From contig JALHRM010000002.1 of the NCBI GenBank assembly GCA_022841445.1, positions 25,581 through 89,580 of the forward strand: a stretch of 64,000 nt of DNA, written 5' to 3'. This DNA is from Candidatus Saccharimonadota bacterium (lineage in GTDB: Bacteria > Patescibacteriota > Saccharimonadia > Saccharimonadales > UBA10212). The notes under the pieces were generated by a model, which made no database searches, had not been told where the DNA came from, and saw only the letters and a list, made by a program, of their open reading frames with translations. This document shows positions 19,343 to 24,512 of the stretch, in pieces (the first letter of the stretch is position 1; the number at the start of each line of letters is the position of its first letter). The position numbers were made by a program, and so were the translations under genes.

Positions 19343-19408
19343 ACTTAAGAGCACCTAAATGTAAGTGGGAGAGTGAGCAACTCGTCAGCACCACGAAGGA
19401 GAACAACT

Positions 19409-20356
19409 ATGCCAACCAAGAAATCTGATACTTCCAAAGAAGAAGTCGTAATTACTGATGAGCCTGTAAAAAAGGAGGTCGCACAGACTCCTGAGCCAGA
19501 AACAGAAGTAGCCGAAAAATCTACTGCCAAAGCTGGCAAGCGTAGCGCAAAAGCCATCAAAGAAACTGAAGAAAAGCAAGCTAAAGAAGAACGCAAGGCA
19601 ACCAAGGAATCTGAAGGATCATCAGAGGAAAAGCCAAAACGAGTTATCACGCCTAGTCGACCCCGCATCGAGCGAGCCGGCAAAAAACTACGCGAAGTAA
19701 CAAAACTTATAGACAAATCAAAAGACTATGCTCTTAGCGATGCTATTGATCTCGCCATTAAAACCACGACCACAAAATTCGATGCTAGCGTTGAGCTGCA
19801 CATCAACCTCGGTGTCGACCCTAAGCATGCCGATCAAAACATTCGAGGAACTATTGTTTTGCCTGCTGGAACTGGTAAAACAGTTAGAGTTGCAGTATAT
19901 GCAGAGGCCGAAGATGTCGCCAAGGCCAAGAAGGCCGGTGCAGATGTTGCTGGCAGCGACGAGTTCTTGCAGCAACTCGACAAAGAAAAAATTGATTTTG
20001 ACGTACTGATCGCTACACCTCAATTGATGGCAAAACTAAGTAAATACGCCAAGCTGCTCGGCCCCAAAGGACTGATGCCGAATCCTAAAAGCGGCACCGT
20101 AGCCGCTGATGTAGCAAAGGCAGTTACTGAAGCCAAAGCCGGCAAGGTCGAGTACCGCGTTGACAGTAATGGGATCGTCCATGTCGCCGTGGGCAAAGTA
20201 GGCTTCGGTGCCGACAAACTAGCTCAAAACATTGGCGCACTTTTCAGCAGCATTAAGGCAGCCAAACCAAGCAGTATTAAAGGCAACTACGTCAAGACTA
20301 TCTATTTGACAACAACCATGGGACCAAGCATTCGCATCAGCCAATCTGACATGTAG
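19409..20356 (+). CDS. rplA: 50S ribosomal protein L1 with ~90-aa Lys/Glu-rich N-terminal extension
   Basis: The canonical L1 core starts near [11 protein letters not shown] and includes [27 protein letters not shown] 19409 with AAGGAG 8 nt upstream is preferred over GTG 19373. Confidence 0.9.
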
Positions 20357-20432: not shown

Positions 20433-21161
20433 GTGTCCGTAGAACGAGCGGGAGTATACAGTAATATTCAAATCAGGGAAGCTATAGAACACGGGCACAT
20501 TATCTGTCATCCGTTTCAGCCGAAACATGTCAGTCATGCTAGTTTAGATGTCACCCTCGGCTATAACTATTACCGTATCGAACGGCTTAATGAGCGAACC
20601 ATCTATAATCCGTTCGATCGCGAAGATGTTGAGCGATATTTTGACGGACCGTATGAGGCCATGCCCCATGAACAGTGGTGTAAACTAAATGGCTTCAAGC
20701 CGCTTAAGAATATACCTCCCGATCATCCTGTCATTTCACTAAAGCCAGGGGAGCGTATTCTGGCCCACACCCATGAATTCTTTGGAATTTTACCTCCAGG
20801 TGCATACGAATTAAAAAGCCGTTCCAGTTGGGCGCGGAATGGGATTGCCGTTTGCTTCGATGCCGGGTGGGTTGATCCAGGCTACATCAACCGCTTGACG
20901 CTAGAAATTTATAATCTCAATATGCGTGAAACTATTGTTCTGCCAGTTGGTGAACGTGTTGGTCAGGCTGTATTCCATCATACCGGGCCAGTCGAAGGCA
21001 GCTATGGCGAAGGTCGTGACCAAAGTTTCAGCGGCAAATATCAGAGCGGAACTGAACTCAAAAAAATAATCACCAAGTGGTCACCTGATCAGATGCTACC
21101 TCAGGCCTACCGCGACACCCGTAGCCTACCGACTAAGATTAAAGGCTTGAGTTATGAGTAA
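20433..21161 (+). CDS. dcd: dCTP deaminase / dUTPase-superfamily enzyme
   Basis: 242 aa. The N-terminus (IQIREAIEHGHIICHPF, ASLDVTLG) and the later GWVDPGY block are typical of Dcd. GTG start with AAGGAGG upstream. Confidence 0.75.
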   Translation: MSVERAGVYSNIQIREAIEHGHIICHPFQPKHVSHASLDVTLGYNYYRIERLNERTIYNPFDREDVERYFDGPYEAMPHEQWCKLNGFKPLKNIPPDHPVISLKPGERILAHTHEFFGILPPGAYELKSRSSWARNGIAVCFDAGWVDPGYINRLTLEIYNLNMRETIVLPVGERVGQAVFHHTGPVEGSYGEGRDQSFSGKYQSGTELKKIITKWSPDQMLPQAYRDTRSLPTKIKGLSYE

Positions 21162-23460
21162 GGGACTATACATTGTTATTGAGGGTCCTGAGGGTGTCGG
21201 TAAGTCAACGCAAGTTGAAGCACTGGCCAAGAAGTTTAGTGATATTGGACAAAGCGTTAGACTGTTCCGCGAACCAGACAGCCAAAGCGACTTAACGGCA
21301 CGAGTGCTGCGCCGCTTAACACAGGATCCGCACTATCCGATGAATACCCGCACTGAGGTGCTGCTATATAACGCTGCCCGTAGTCAATCTTTGGAAGTTA
21401 TCCGGCGAGCAAGAGCTAACGGCACTGTATGTTTGGTTGACAGAAACTACCTCACAACACTTGCCATACAATATTATGGCCGCGGTGATGTGCCAGATTA
21501 CGACATGATCACCACCATAATTAACTTCGCAGTAGGGGACATGCAGCCCGACAAAACAATCATCCTTGATGCACCTGTTAACGTTCTACAAAGCCGCGCT
21601 CAGGAACGAGCCTCTGGTGAGCGGTTTGATAATCTCGACCTCGAATTTTTAGAGCGTGTTAGGGCTGGGTACTTATGGGAGGCCAAGCAGCGAGGCTATC
21701 CGGTAGTTCATGCTACTGAATCGGTCACTGAAATTACTGCCAAACTGTGGGGGCTGCTCGGTGGAGCAGAGGCTGCAGACACTGACACAGCATTGACCGT
21801 CCCACCACCGCCATCTACTGCAACGCCATTGAAGGAACTAATTAGCGCTAAGCAGGAATCCTTAGATATGCAGCCACTACTTAGCAAGGATAAGGATGGC
21901 AACTATATTGTCACGGATGCCGGAACCAGTTACTTAAAACAAGTGCTGACAAATACGACCGGTAACGTATACGCCTTTACTCAAGATATAAATCCTGTTA
22001 CTGTGGCCGCTGCTATGGCTCGCCTATCTAGGCGCGGCGATGATATGCGCATCACACTGCTGGACGAGTTTGCCGCGCATCACGGCAACGACGAAGGACT
22101 GCTAAAGCGAGTTATCACCGCTTACGGTGACGACTCTGTGCAGCAGCTGGTTGGTCAACATGTCGTCGTCGAAAATGCCAGCAACTTACTGACTAAAAAA
22201 TTGGAGTGGGGAAGGCTGGCATCATACCTCGAGCAATCCACTCGCTACATATACTTTGATAAAAAAGATGCTGCTGGTAATTTTCGATACTACACACCTG
22301 AAGAATTGTCAGGAGATCTAGAAAAATCATACCGCGCTAAAATGAATGATATTTTTGTGCATTATTCACTATTAGTTCGTAAACTTACCGAATATATTCA
22401 AAAACACTCCGATGTGGCAGAGTCAGAGCGTGACGGTGCCTGGAGATCGGCAACTCGTGCTCAAGCATGTGACGCCATCAGACCAGTACTGCCAGTTGCA
22501 ACAACGTCCACTGTTGGCATCTATGCGAGTGGCCAAGCCCTCGAAAGTCTGATTATGCATCTACTATCCGATGAGATGCCAGAGGCTGTTACGACCGGCC
22601 AGCAGCTTCTCGATGAATGTCGAAAAGTCATTCCAGTATTCCTGGAACGTGCCGATAAGCCCGACCGCGGTGGCGCGATGATCGCTTACCGCGCCACTAC
22701 TGCTAAGTCAGTCCGTGAACTGGCAGACGGCCTACTTCCACAGTCAATCAGCCCCGAAGTTGAGTCCGTGGCATTAACTGACTACTGGCCAAGGAACGAA
22801 CTGGATTTAGTTGCAGATATGCTTTACGAACATAGTCATTTGCCGCTTGAGGCAATCCGCGAAGAAGCAAAATCATGGCACTACCAGCAGAAGAGAAAAA
22901 TCGTCAATGCGTATATGGGCGAAAGACTCAACCGACGACACCGCCCGGGTCGGGCTCTGGAAAAAGCCCACTACAGTTTTGATTTAGTTTGTGATTATGG
23001 CATCTTCCGTGACTTGCAGCGCCACAGAATGGTAGACGATATGCAGTGGCAACTACTGACGCCACGCTACGGCTATGACATACCTGAACTAGTCGAACAA
23101 GCCGGACTAAGCGAATTGTTTGAAAAATGCTTTGACATAAGCCTCACACTGCACAGCGAACTACAGGCTGCTGGTCATGATCTGGCCGCACAATACGCTA
23201 CCTTGCTTGGCCACAAGATGCGCTGGAAGGTAACATTTAATGCACGCCAGGCCTTCCATATGCTAGAGCTACGCACCACACCCCAAGGCCACCCCGGCTA
23301 CCGTAAATTAAGTAAAGAAATGTATGACAAGATTACTGAAATTCATCCACTAATTGGCCAGGCCATGAAGTTTGTCAATCAGGATGAAGATCCTGAACTT
23401 ACCAGATTGGCAGCCGAGCGCTACACTCAATTCAAGCTAAATCAACTCAAAGTCATCTAA
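21154..23460 (+). CDS. fusion protein: thymidylate kinase (N-terminal ~205 aa) + tandem ThyX-like FAD-dependent thymidylate synthase (~530 aa)
   Basis: Tmk part: IVIEGPEGVGKST, FREP, VDRNYLTTLAIQ. ThyX part: WGRLASYLEQSTRY in the first half; RDLQRHRM..TPRY and FNARQAFHMLELR in the second half. 8-nt overlap with dcd. Confidence 0.8.
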   Translation: MSKGLYIVIEGPEGVGKSTQVEALAKKFSDIGQSVRLFREPDSQSDLTARVLRRLTQDPHYPMNTRTEVLLYNAARSQSLEVIRRARANGTVCLVDRNYLTTLAIQYYGRGDVPDYDMITTIINFAVGDMQPDKTIILDAPVNVLQSRAQERASGERFDNLDLEFLERVRAGYLWEAKQRGYPVVHATESVTEITAKLWGLLGGAEAADTDTALTVPPPPSTATPLKELISAKQESLDMQPLLSKDKDGNYIVTDAGTSYLKQVLTNTTGNVYAFTQDINPVTVAAAMARLSRRGDDMRITLLDEFAAHHGNDEGLLKRVITAYGDDSVQQLVGQHVVVENASNLLTKKLEWGRLASYLEQSTRYIYFDKKDAAGNFRYYTPEELSGDLEKSYRAKMNDIFVHYSLLVRKLTEYIQKHSDVAESERDGAWRSATRAQACDAIRPVLPVATTSTVGIYASGQALESLIMHLLSDEMPEAVTTGQQLLDECRKVIPVFLERADKPDRGGAMIAYRATTAKSVRELADGLLPQSISPEVESVALTDYWPRNELDLVADMLYEHSHLPLEAIREEAKSWHYQQKRKIVNAYMGERLNRRHRPGRALEKAHYSFDLVCDYGIFRDLQRHRMVDDMQWQLLTPRYGYDIPELVEQAGLSELFEKCFDISLTLHSELQAAGHDLAAQYATLLGHKMRWKVTFNARQAFHMLELRTTPQGHPGYRKLSKEMYDKITEIHPLIGQAMKFVNQDEDPELTRLAAERYTQFKLNQLKVI

Positions 23461-24140
23461 AGCAACATAGCAACTGCCACATTGTTGCGCCCACCTCGCT
23501 TAACGTTGTAGAGCAGTCCGTCGGCTGCTTGCAATGCGCCATTCATATCAAAATCCATCCGTGTTGGATCCCACAGTACTGTCCCCATCGATATGGTCAC
23601 TGGTCGACCCTCTATTTCAGTAGTCACTGCAGATTGCATGCGTCGCATAGCAGTAGTAAAGTCACTAACTCGATCTACTGGCTGTTCACTGAGCAAGGCA
23701 AATTCCTCTCCGCCTATTCGGGCAACGGTGTCGGCGGCGCGACTCTGCGCGGTAAGTAACCCAGCAATATCTCTAATGACTTCATCACCAGCATCGTGTC
23801 CAAAAGTATCATTAACAGATTTGAAGTGATCTATATCACATACAGTTAAACTTAATACCGTGTCCGTAACACCACGGACCCTTCTCTCTAGAAGATGATT
23901 AAAATCGTGCTCAAATCCTCGCCTGTTCAATAAACCGGTTAAAGGATCGGTTATTGCATCACGTTTAAGGCGTTCACGCTCTGCTTGAGCAGCAGCAGCG
24001 GACTCTATGCCACTAAGAGATAGATTACCTAGTAGCTCTAAATACCGCTCTCTCTGCTTTACTGGAACAAGCTCAAATACCTCAGCCGCAAACTGACCTA
24101 CTCTACGACGATACTGTTCGGAATCATGATTTGATAACAT
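23457..24140 (-). CDS. GGDEF-domain diguanylate cyclase with coiled-coil N-terminus
   Basis: DPLTGLLNRRGF and RIGGEEFALL motifs. ATG 24140 with AAGGAAAGGA upstream is preferred over GTG 24203. The 3' end overlaps the tmk::thyX stop by 4 nt. Confidence 0.85.
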   Translation of the reverse strand: MLSNHDSEQYRRRVGQFAAEVFELVPVKQRERYLELLGNLSLSGIESAAAAQAERERLKRDAITDPLTGLLNRRGFEHDFNHLLERRVRGVTDTVLSLTVCDIDHFKSVNDTFGHDAGDEVIRDIAGLLTAQSRAADTVARIGGEEFALLSEQPVDRVSDFTTAMRRMQSAVTTEIEGRPVTISMGTVLWDPTRMDFDMNGALQAADGLLYNVKRGGRNNVAVAMLL

Positions 24141-24303
24141 GTTTTGTCCTTTCCTTAGTGGTGAAGGATTGCCCTCCAGCCGTGGGTTCGCTACTAGCTC
24201 CACATACTCTAAGCGACCAGATTACCGAGTATGCTTCTAAGCTGACTGTTTATTTTATGTTATTATAGCAATTTTATTAATATTTGTCAATATGTATCTG
24301 CCT

Positions 24304-24332
24304 TTGCAAGCATTGAACATACATGTTACAAT
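24304..24332 (+). promoter_or_regulatory. candidate rplJL promoter
   Basis: TTGCAA, 17 nt, TACAAT. Confidence 0.5.
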
Positions 24333-24339
24333 CATCGTT

Positions 24340-24456
24340 GATTACCAAAGACAGTAGCTGGCACTTACCTTATGTAAGTCCTTAATCCGCTACCGAGGTA
24401 CAAATATTATATTTGTCGTCTAAGTCTTTGGTGAACAGCATCCAAGGGCTTTTTTA
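24340..24456 (+). promoter_or_regulatory. structured rplJ leader (L10-leader-like) with terminator-type attenuator hairpin
   Basis: Long-range GTAGC (24354-58) / GCTAC (24389-93) pairing encloses the hairpin ACTTAC-CTTAT-GTAAGT. A 9-bp hairpin at 24423-24450 is followed by TTTTT, 57 nt before the rplJ ATG. Confidence 0.45.
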
Positions 24457-24512
24457 TTGGTCATTTAATGATGCGTCACCAGGTCGATACCAACTAAACA
24501 AGGAAATGCACT

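Follow-up and report, generated by a model that had tools for sequence, protein, structure and literature searches.

In its canonical form the flavin-dependent thymidylate synthase ThyX is a 222-symmetric homotetramer with four active sites, each of which is formed by three subunits in three distinct roles. How such a site can be assembled when two unlike ThyX domains are joined in one chain is the question raised by an open reading frame (ORF) of 768 amino acids (aa) in a stretch of 64,000 nucleotides (nt) from Candidatus Saccharimonadota (UBA10212; assembly GCA_022841445.1, contig JALHRM010000002.1, positions 25,581–89,580 of the forward strand), which as a whole is called the window in the following. 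This ORF joins a thymidylate kinase (Tmk) to two consecutive ThyX halves and would thus cover the last steps towards the precursor of deoxythymidine triphosphate (dTTP), the conversion of deoxyuridine monophosphate (dUMP) to deoxythymidine monophosphate (dTMP) by the flavin-dependent synthase and the phosphorylation of dTMP to the diphosphate dTDP by the kinase. As judged by the alignments described here, the two halves have lost canonical ThyX residues in a complementary manner, and this loss is real, reaches past the signature motif and is family-wide rather than specific to this gene. The ORF and its parts are the following:

21154–23460, + strand: fusion ORF, Tmk followed by ThyX half 1 and ThyX half 2, 768 aa (ORF list, Pfam and NCBIfam)
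21154–21762, + strand: dTMP kinase domain, aa 1–203 (TIGR00041 and alignment to 4e5u)
21763–21939, + strand: linker, aa 204–262 (conservation and predicted structural confidence)
21940–22668, + strand: ThyX half 1, aa 263–505 (Pfam Thy1 match aa 280–495)
22201–22251, + strand: half-1 motif LEWGRLASYLEQSTRYI, aa 350–366, with WGR in place of RHR and S-x2-E-x-S-x-RY present
22465–22494, + strand: half-1 segment ACDAIRPVLP, aa 438–447, with D440 at the place of E144 and R443 at that of R147
22669–23457, + strand: ThyX half 2, aa 506–768 (Pfam Thy1 match aa 541–732)
23008–23070, + strand: half-2 motif RDLQRHRMVDDMQWQLLTPRY, aa 619–639, with RHR present and the Ser-loop absent
23239–23274, + strand: half-2 segment NARQAFHMLELR, aa 696–707, with N696, R698 and R707 at the places of N163, R165 and R174

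The kinase domain scores 110.7 bits against TIGR00041, above the equivalog cut-off of 83.25, while Pfam Thymidylate_kin matches aa 9–196 (E 1e-27) and aa 3–201 match the solved Tmk 4e5u (E 1e-28), to which the P-loop GPEGVGKST, the DRNY motif and the LID arginines SRAQERASGERFD align. It is followed by a Pro/Thr/Ala-rich stretch and, in the model of the tandem part, by a small beta-hairpin and a helix leading into the ThyX module; this linker (aa 204–262) is the least conserved stretch among orthologues, with both ThyX halves highly conserved. Pfam Thy1 (PF02511, cut-off 24.8 bits) matches the whole ORF as two stretches (E 2e-33), and each half passes the cut-off alone: aa 231–500 cover profile positions 8–191 with 59.4 bits (E 5e-16) and aa 501–768 cover positions 2–190 with 64.4 bits (E 1.5e-17). 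The thyX equivalog TIGR02170 is not reached (58.2 bits vs a cut-off of 87.9), which marks the tandem family as divergent. The initial annotation, made from the DNA alone, had read the ORF as a Tmk joined to two ThyX domains, and the domain count by HMMER, two Thy1 and one Thymidylate_kin, agrees with it, as do the Pfam and NCBIfam assignments; the half-1 and half-2 motifs that it had quoted are all present. A single ThyX domain with an unrelated insert is ruled out, since each half alone passes the Thy1 cut-off. An assembly artefact or two mis-joined genes are ruled out by more than 120 full-length orthologues from independent assemblies. In a collection of 5.8 billion proteins one identical protein and these more than 120 full-length relatives (759–793 aa, 64–92% identity, 99–100% query coverage) were found, which share the Tmk and Thy1 content, come from many independent assemblies and, where a public name is given, are called dTMP kinase [Candidatus Saccharimonadales / Saccharibacteria].

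The ThyX part alone finds no match among PDB sequences by phmmer, and a family profile is needed. Residue equivalences were therefore taken from searches of PDB sequences with the profile of alignment A1, which comprises 54 rows (the ThyX part of the window protein and 53 stand-alone tandem relatives, 32–53% identical), and with a half-2 profile (A2); canonical residues are given in the numbering of Thermotoga maritima ThyX. Half 1 aligns to Mycobacterium tuberculosis ThyX (2af6/3gwc, E 2e-13) and half 2 to T. maritima ThyX (1kq4, E 9e-5). Half 1 reads WGR-LAS-YLE-QS-TRY: W352-G353-R354 stand at R78-H79-R80, so that the equivalents of Arg78 and His79 are lost and only the third arginine is retained, while S357, E360, S362, R364 and Y365 correspond to S83, E86, S88, R90 and Y91. 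Further downstream, S459, Q461 and H469 replace N163, R165 and R174. Half 2 presents the complementary picture, with E603 at E58, R619 at R74 and R623-H624-R625 at R78-H79-R80, the positions of Ser88 and Gly89 deleted and Q680 in place of R147. The signature RHR(X)7-8S...RY is hence incomplete in each domain and whole only with the halves combined, and the split that had been suspected by eye is confirmed by profile alignment to solved ThyX. T. maritima ThyX relies on Arg174 for the activation of dUMP and on the help of Ser88, Arg90 and Tyr91 for transferring the methylene group from the flavin carbinolamine; all four residues are kinetically important (PMC8316439).

Both sets of residues are under evident family-wide conservation. 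Across A1, the invariant positions of half 1 are G325-D326-D327-S328 (GDDS), S343, R354, E360, S362, R364, D440, R443 and E477, and those of half 2 are R594, R600, E603, D620, R623, R625, R698, R707, H713 and Y716. The retained catalytic-type residues are invariant in all 54 rows except S357, Y365, R619, H624 and N696, and of these H624 and N696 (as N466) are each conserved in at least 90% of the rows. All 25 family-invariant positions that were checked are present in the window protein, as they are in its 120 close orthologues. The 'TPRY' of half 2, which had been quoted as part of its motif, is present, and its Thr636 and Arg638 are conserved within Saccharibacteria (alignment A4); both are missing from the invariant and near-invariant columns of the wider tandem family and are variable in the motif listing, so that this segment is not a retained Ser-loop and no vestige of S-x-RY. 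BLASTP finds no similarity between half 1 and half 2, and hhalign of the two half-profiles gives a marginal match (E 1e-3) in the expected register, with WGR on RHR. By this profile comparison the halves are homologous but ancient.

For aa 231–768, an AlphaFold2 model was computed from an alignment of 80 rows, comprising Saccharibacteria and stand-alone tandems of 39–44% identity (the named ones from Acidimicrobiales, Actinomycetota, Rokubacteria, Acidobacteriota and Vicinamibacterales). Its mean predicted local distance difference test score (pLDDT) is 90.8 and its predicted template modelling score (pTM) 0.89, and in this model the tandem part is one confidently packed, compact two-domain body, as expected for the covalent pseudo-dimer that had been proposed. 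Foldseek against the PDB returns only chains of ThyX and of PolB, the UMP/dUMP methylase (4p5b), the top matches with a probability of 1.00, and each match spans about half of the tandem model (template modelling score 0.63–0.74 normalised on the target, TMt, and about 0.30 on the query, TMq). Among the PDB chains searched (copy to April 2026) there is no solved tandem ThyX structure. With the kinase included, the full-length model falls to a pLDDT of 70 and a pTM of 0.51, the linker (aa 204–238) has pLDDT values of 31–38, and the Tmk domain is undocked from the ThyX body.

The assumption that the split-motif tandem ThyX is unique to this locus does not hold, for it is a large family across many phyla. 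An exhaustive HMMER search with aa 231–768 of 1.84 billion representatives clustered at 50% identity gave 3498 clusters at E <= 1e-3 and 721 at E <= 1e-30, and the best 150 clusters are a mix of stand-alone proteins of ~520–560 aa and Tmk fusions of ~640–800 aa. The listed representatives include 129 with a length of 500 aa or more; 91 of these have no Tmk and 38 have one, 35 of the latter with both ThyX halves. At least 594 GTDB species genomes encode a relative; the best 80 GTDB matches are Saccharibacteria, followed by Acidimicrobiia and other Actinomycetota, Rokubacteria, Vicinamibacterales and Acidobacteriota. Stand-alone members named 'FAD-dependent thymidylate synthase' (FAD, flavin adenine dinucleotide) occur in Ferrimicrobium, Acidimicrobiales, Rokubacteria, Dormibacteraeota, Woesebacteria and the DPANN archaeon Norongarragalinales, and relatives are also found in other Patescibacteria and in a cyanophage. 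Within BFVD, the 'thymidylate synthase' of Microcystis phage LMM01 (A0A7D4 as printed, 491 aa) and A0A6B7EUB9 (461 aa) align structurally across both halves (TMq 0.54–0.60, 535–553 aligned columns, 18–19% identity), and these structural models suggest that double-domain ThyX occurs in viruses too. The enzymes themselves are textbook knowledge (ThyX, Tmk, Dcd) and tandem ThyX is already in public databases, correctly named, while in the full-text literature searched no description was found of tandem ThyX, of the catalytic-residue split, of a Tmk-ThyX fusion or of ThyX in Saccharibacteria. Chlamydial ThyX, ~529 aa long and reportedly assayed by Griffin et al. in 2005, may be a member of the tandem class, and if it belongs there, tandem ThyX activity is already known.

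Within this family, stand-alone tandems and Tmk fusions differ in how well the ThyX residues are kept. Of the 91 stand-alone tandems, 89 retain 21 or more of the 25 checked positions, whereas all 25 are kept by only 5 of the 38 listed Tmk-fused representatives, and 33 of 38 have lost most of them, a loss which was confirmed with an L-INS-i alignment; the counts are not a census, as clustering at 50% identity over-represents fast-evolving sequences. In the decayed fusions (P0130, P0139, P0141, P0148, P0153, P0154, P0156, P0163, P0165–P0167, P0169, P0172, P0183, P0203, P0204, P0208, P0222, P0227 and others; where named, 'Patescibacteria group bacterium', dTMP kinase or FAD-dependent thymidylate synthase) the RHR has become QRN, LHF or QNN in examples, STRY, the Ser-loop and the equivalents of Asn163, Arg165 and Arg174 are lost, and 'LTPRYG' is still conserved, as are the P-loop and the DR motif of Tmk. 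To judge by these residues, Tmk fusions whose ThyX module is 'dead' form a sizeable set, and the module looks like a pseudo-enzyme.

What assembly would these partitioned residues form? The essential residues are split without redundancy and both sets are invariant, for which the simplest model is a tetramer-like homodimer: as the sites of the canonical 222 tetramer are each built from three subunits, a homodimer of a two-domain chain would imitate the tetramer. The domains identified, the partition of the residues and its conservation throughout the family, the synteny and the compact tandem fold lead us to favour, with moderate confidence, a bifunctional protein in which a ThyX pseudo-dimer with composite sites pairs to a homodimer with two live and two dead sites and is tethered to a dimeric Tmk; the quaternary structure, the number of live sites and the catalytic activities are predictions of this model. 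The ThyX part would be an ancient covalent pseudo-dimer with specialised homologous halves. Half 1 would provide the mobile Ser-loop, with its counterparts of Ser88, Arg90 and Tyr91, as well as Arg147, and half 2 the FAD- and dUMP-binding equivalents of Arg74, RHR, Glu58, Asn163 and Arg165 together with the dUMP-activating Arg174. With half 1 in the Ser-loop/Arg147 role and the two copies of half 2 in the RHR role and in the Asn163/Arg165 (plus Arg174) role, two complete sites would result, and their two symmetry mates, with half 2 at the centre, would be dead. From its residues, the fusion protein is predicted to bind FAD and to methylate dUMP in a manner dependent on NADPH (reduced nicotinamide adenine dinucleotide phosphate) and methylenetetrahydrofolate (CH2H4folate). 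Tmk is usually dimeric, so that a dimeric ThyX module would match the Tmk dimer, which is perhaps why a kinase fusion is possible with the tandem class.

Several points weigh against the homodimer with composite sites. Half 1 has Asp326 at the position of His53, within an invariant GDDS that has no canonical counterpart, and given this the chemistry of the site may differ in detail from that of canonical ThyX. The putative assignment of the halves to their roles, with Arg174 and the Ser-loop on different chains, is based on symmetry reasoning and on the T. maritima structure. Moreover, many Tmk-fused relatives are without ThyX catalytic residues, and these decayed proteins indicate that the module can persist without ThyX catalysis. 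A wider proposal, which we put forward as tentative, is the following: tandem ThyX enzymes including the Tmk fusion would be obligate pseudo-heterotetramers with two composite sites, and in many Patescibacteria catalysis would have been lost, leaving a dead scaffold on an intact Tmk. If true, this would offer a naturally asymmetric ThyX as a ready system for dissecting the three-subunit active site, and the dead scaffold would imply a non-catalytic role, e.g., in dimerisation, regulation or nucleotide sensing.

Other explanations of the same protein have to be weighed against the composite site. One half alone might be catalytic, the other serving as a structural stand-in for a partner subunit without catalytic residues; several canonical residues are indeed missing from each half, pseudo-enzyme domains are common in tandem duplications, and the degenerate relatives reveal a fold that tolerates motif loss. 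We nevertheless regard this as quite improbable, as the catalytic-type residues of both halves are invariant across phyla and neither half has a full set, Ser88, Arg90, Tyr91 and Arg147 being represented only in half 1 and RHR, Asn163, Arg165 and the invariant Arg174 only in half 2, of which Ser88, Arg90, Tyr91 and Arg174 are the residues of kinetic importance in T. maritima ThyX (PMC8316439). Less probable still is a loss of thymidylate synthase function in the ThyX module of this protein, which would have become a regulator or scaffold of Tmk or a PolB-like methylase of a different nucleotide. The 33 of 38 listed Tmk-fused representatives that kept the Tmk P-loop and lost most ThyX catalytic positions, the presence of PolB (4p5b) among the structural matches and the NCBI naming of the fusions as 'dTMP kinase' only would fit such a change; against it speak the 25 of 25 invariant positions which the window protein shares with all 120 close orthologues, motifs that match those of stand-alone tandems bearing a thymidylate synthase annotation, and the dcd and tmk neighbours, which suggest a route from dUMP via dTMP to dTDP.

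A further explanation concerns the purpose of the fusion. The initial annotation had suggested that joining ThyX to the next enzyme channels dTMP, which would call for a fixed interdomain interface between the ThyX site and the Tmk site. Two consecutive steps do lie within one polypeptide, and the fusion is conserved across Saccharibacteria. The linker of about 35–60 aa is, however, poorly conserved and predicted to be disordered (pLDDT 31–38), the pTM drops to 0.51 once Tmk is included, with the kinase undocked, some relatives have an extra stand-alone tmk beside the module, and co-expression with fixed stoichiometry accounts for the fusion equally well; we consider direct channelling unlikely. 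With the exception of this claim and of the assumed uniqueness, the earlier interpretation of a composite ThyX pseudo-dimer fused to Tmk is largely right, and is in this sense partly supported.

Set beside known systems, the tandem module shares its fold with canonical ThyX (T. maritima TM0449, 1O26/1KQ4; M. tuberculosis 2AF6), with one half covered at TMt 0.63–0.74, both halves matching Thy1 and the same catalytic residue types present once the halves are pooled. It differs in that canonical ThyX has one domain per chain and the fusion two, with the FAD/dUMP residues divided between them, in that a tetramer with four sites stands against an expected tandem dimer with two live ones, and in the GDDS (Asp at the His53 position), which is specific to tandem half 1. 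Stand-alone tandem ThyX proteins (~520–560 aa) have the same two halves and the same invariants, at 32–53% identity over the 538-aa module, but lack the N-terminal Tmk, and the phage tandem ThyX-like proteins (LMM01, 491 aa; A0A6B7EUB9, 461 aa) are shorter than the module of the fusion and likewise have no Tmk. Compared with bacterial dTMP kinase (TIGR00041; 4E5U), the kinase of the fusion spans the full length, including P-loop, DR(Y) and LID, and carries in addition a C-terminal extension of 565 aa that contains the preceding enzyme of the pathway.

The genes around the fusion ORF are the following:

Upstream of the dcd-like ORF, + strand: secE-nusG-rplK-rplA, in this order in the window
19373–20356, + strand: rplA (L1; PF00687, E 9e-61), the upstream flank, which is the same in relatives
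20433–21161, + strand: dcd-like gene of the dCTP deaminase family, 242 aa (PF22769, E 9e-31)
23457–24203, - strand: convergent GGDEF gene, diguanylate cyclase
24327–24464, + strand: L10 leader RNA upstream of rplJ (RF00557, 54.3 bits vs a gathering score of 44)

The dcd stop and the start of the fusion ORF share 8 nt, ATGAGTAA, an overlap already recognised in the initial annotation. On the + strand between rplA and the fusion ORF, no sequence resembles a promoter at more than 9 of 12 positions, and neither promoters nor terminators beyond shuffle expectation set dcd apart from these two neighbours; the three genes are probably co-transcribed, the unit riding on rplKA transcription. Downstream of the L10 leader follow rplJ-rplL, and the leader marks the start of a separate rplJL unit and with it the downstream boundary of the module. 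Within the 64-kb window, tblastn finds no second copy of tmk, dcd or thyX. The position between rplA and rplJ, which had been taken for an insertion, is real. When the window proteins were compared with 80 relative loci by tblastn, the order in Saccharibacteria was rplK-rplA-(0–2 kb)-dcd-tmk::thyX-thyX-(0.6–3.9 kb)-rplJ-rplL, with dcd directly upstream of the fusion gene in 32 of the 36 Saccharibacteria loci that have upstream sequence, rplA found in 24 loci and rplJ in about 30. Both the Tmk fusion and the order rplA-dcd-tmk::thyX2-rplJ are thus conserved across Saccharibacteria, and this synteny together with the L10 leader places the module at the rplKA/rplJL boundary lineage-wide, which is no local insertion. 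By the same approach, stand-alone tandems of other phyla have no dcd or tmk homologue within 4 kb.

Some further features of these loci were observed. Six Saccharibacteria loci (L002, L003, L009, L015, L020 and L032) carry an extra stand-alone tmk-like gene after rplA and upstream of dcd, in which case the fused kinase may be redundant. In the window, rplA encodes an N-terminal extension of ~100 residues in which Lys, Glu, Ser and Thr are abundant (19373–19672, + strand), and the Pfam L1 domain begins at residue 130 of 327. The fusion ORF and the GGDEF ORF converge on each other and have 4 nt in common at their stop codons (CTAA / TTAG, 23457–23460); no terminator-like site was found between the two. 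At the 5' end of the GGDEF gene, a full-length match to the riboswitch c-di-GMP-II (RF01786; c-di-GMP, cyclic diguanosine monophosphate) lies at 24177–24248 on the - strand (43.5 bits, E 5e-7, under the gathering score of 53.5), closely following a perfect TTGACA-17-TATAAT promoter (24290–24262, - strand). An in-frame ATG of the GGDEF gene near 24140 would leave the aptamer fully within the 5' untranslated region, and c-di-GMP may exert feedback on its own synthase via this RF01786-like element.

The translationally coupled upstream dcd would supply the uracil nucleotide. A complete module from deoxycytidine triphosphate (dCTP) to dTDP, as had been envisaged, needs the conversion of deoxyuridine triphosphate (dUTP) to dUMP and requires a bifunctional Dcd; the route from dCTP via dUMP and dTMP to dTDP would hold only if the enzyme is of that type. 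The dcd-like protein scores 89.3 bits against TIGR02274, just under the cut-off of 92.8. Its best PDB relatives are the sequence 2qxx/4a6a, 4xjc and the dUMP-forming Methanocaldococcus jannaschii enzyme 1ogh, ahead of the 193-aa 1xs1/2j4h. We take 2qxx and 4xjc to be the bifunctional enzymes of M. tuberculosis and Bacillus halodurans, and 1xs1 presumably is the monofunctional Escherichia coli Dcd. These best relatives suggest that the protein is possibly of the bifunctional, dUMP-forming type.

The divided ThyX module is of significance beyond this locus. ThyX is an antibacterial target, and an active site to which three identical subunits contribute is difficult to dissect, as each mutation is present four times; two linked but non-identical halves with divided residue roles provide an asymmetric system for assigning these roles, and they clearly illustrate how a duplicated domain can subfunctionalise. 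The fusions in which the ThyX part has decayed hint at a possible pseudo-enzyme function. With 'dTMP kinase' as the sole public name of the fusions, thymidylate synthase may be overlooked when the metabolism of Saccharibacteria is reconstructed, and the conserved dcd-tmk::thyX2 unit suggests that these episymbionts with reduced genomes make dTDP from cytosine deoxynucleotides and do not depend on thymidine salvage alone.

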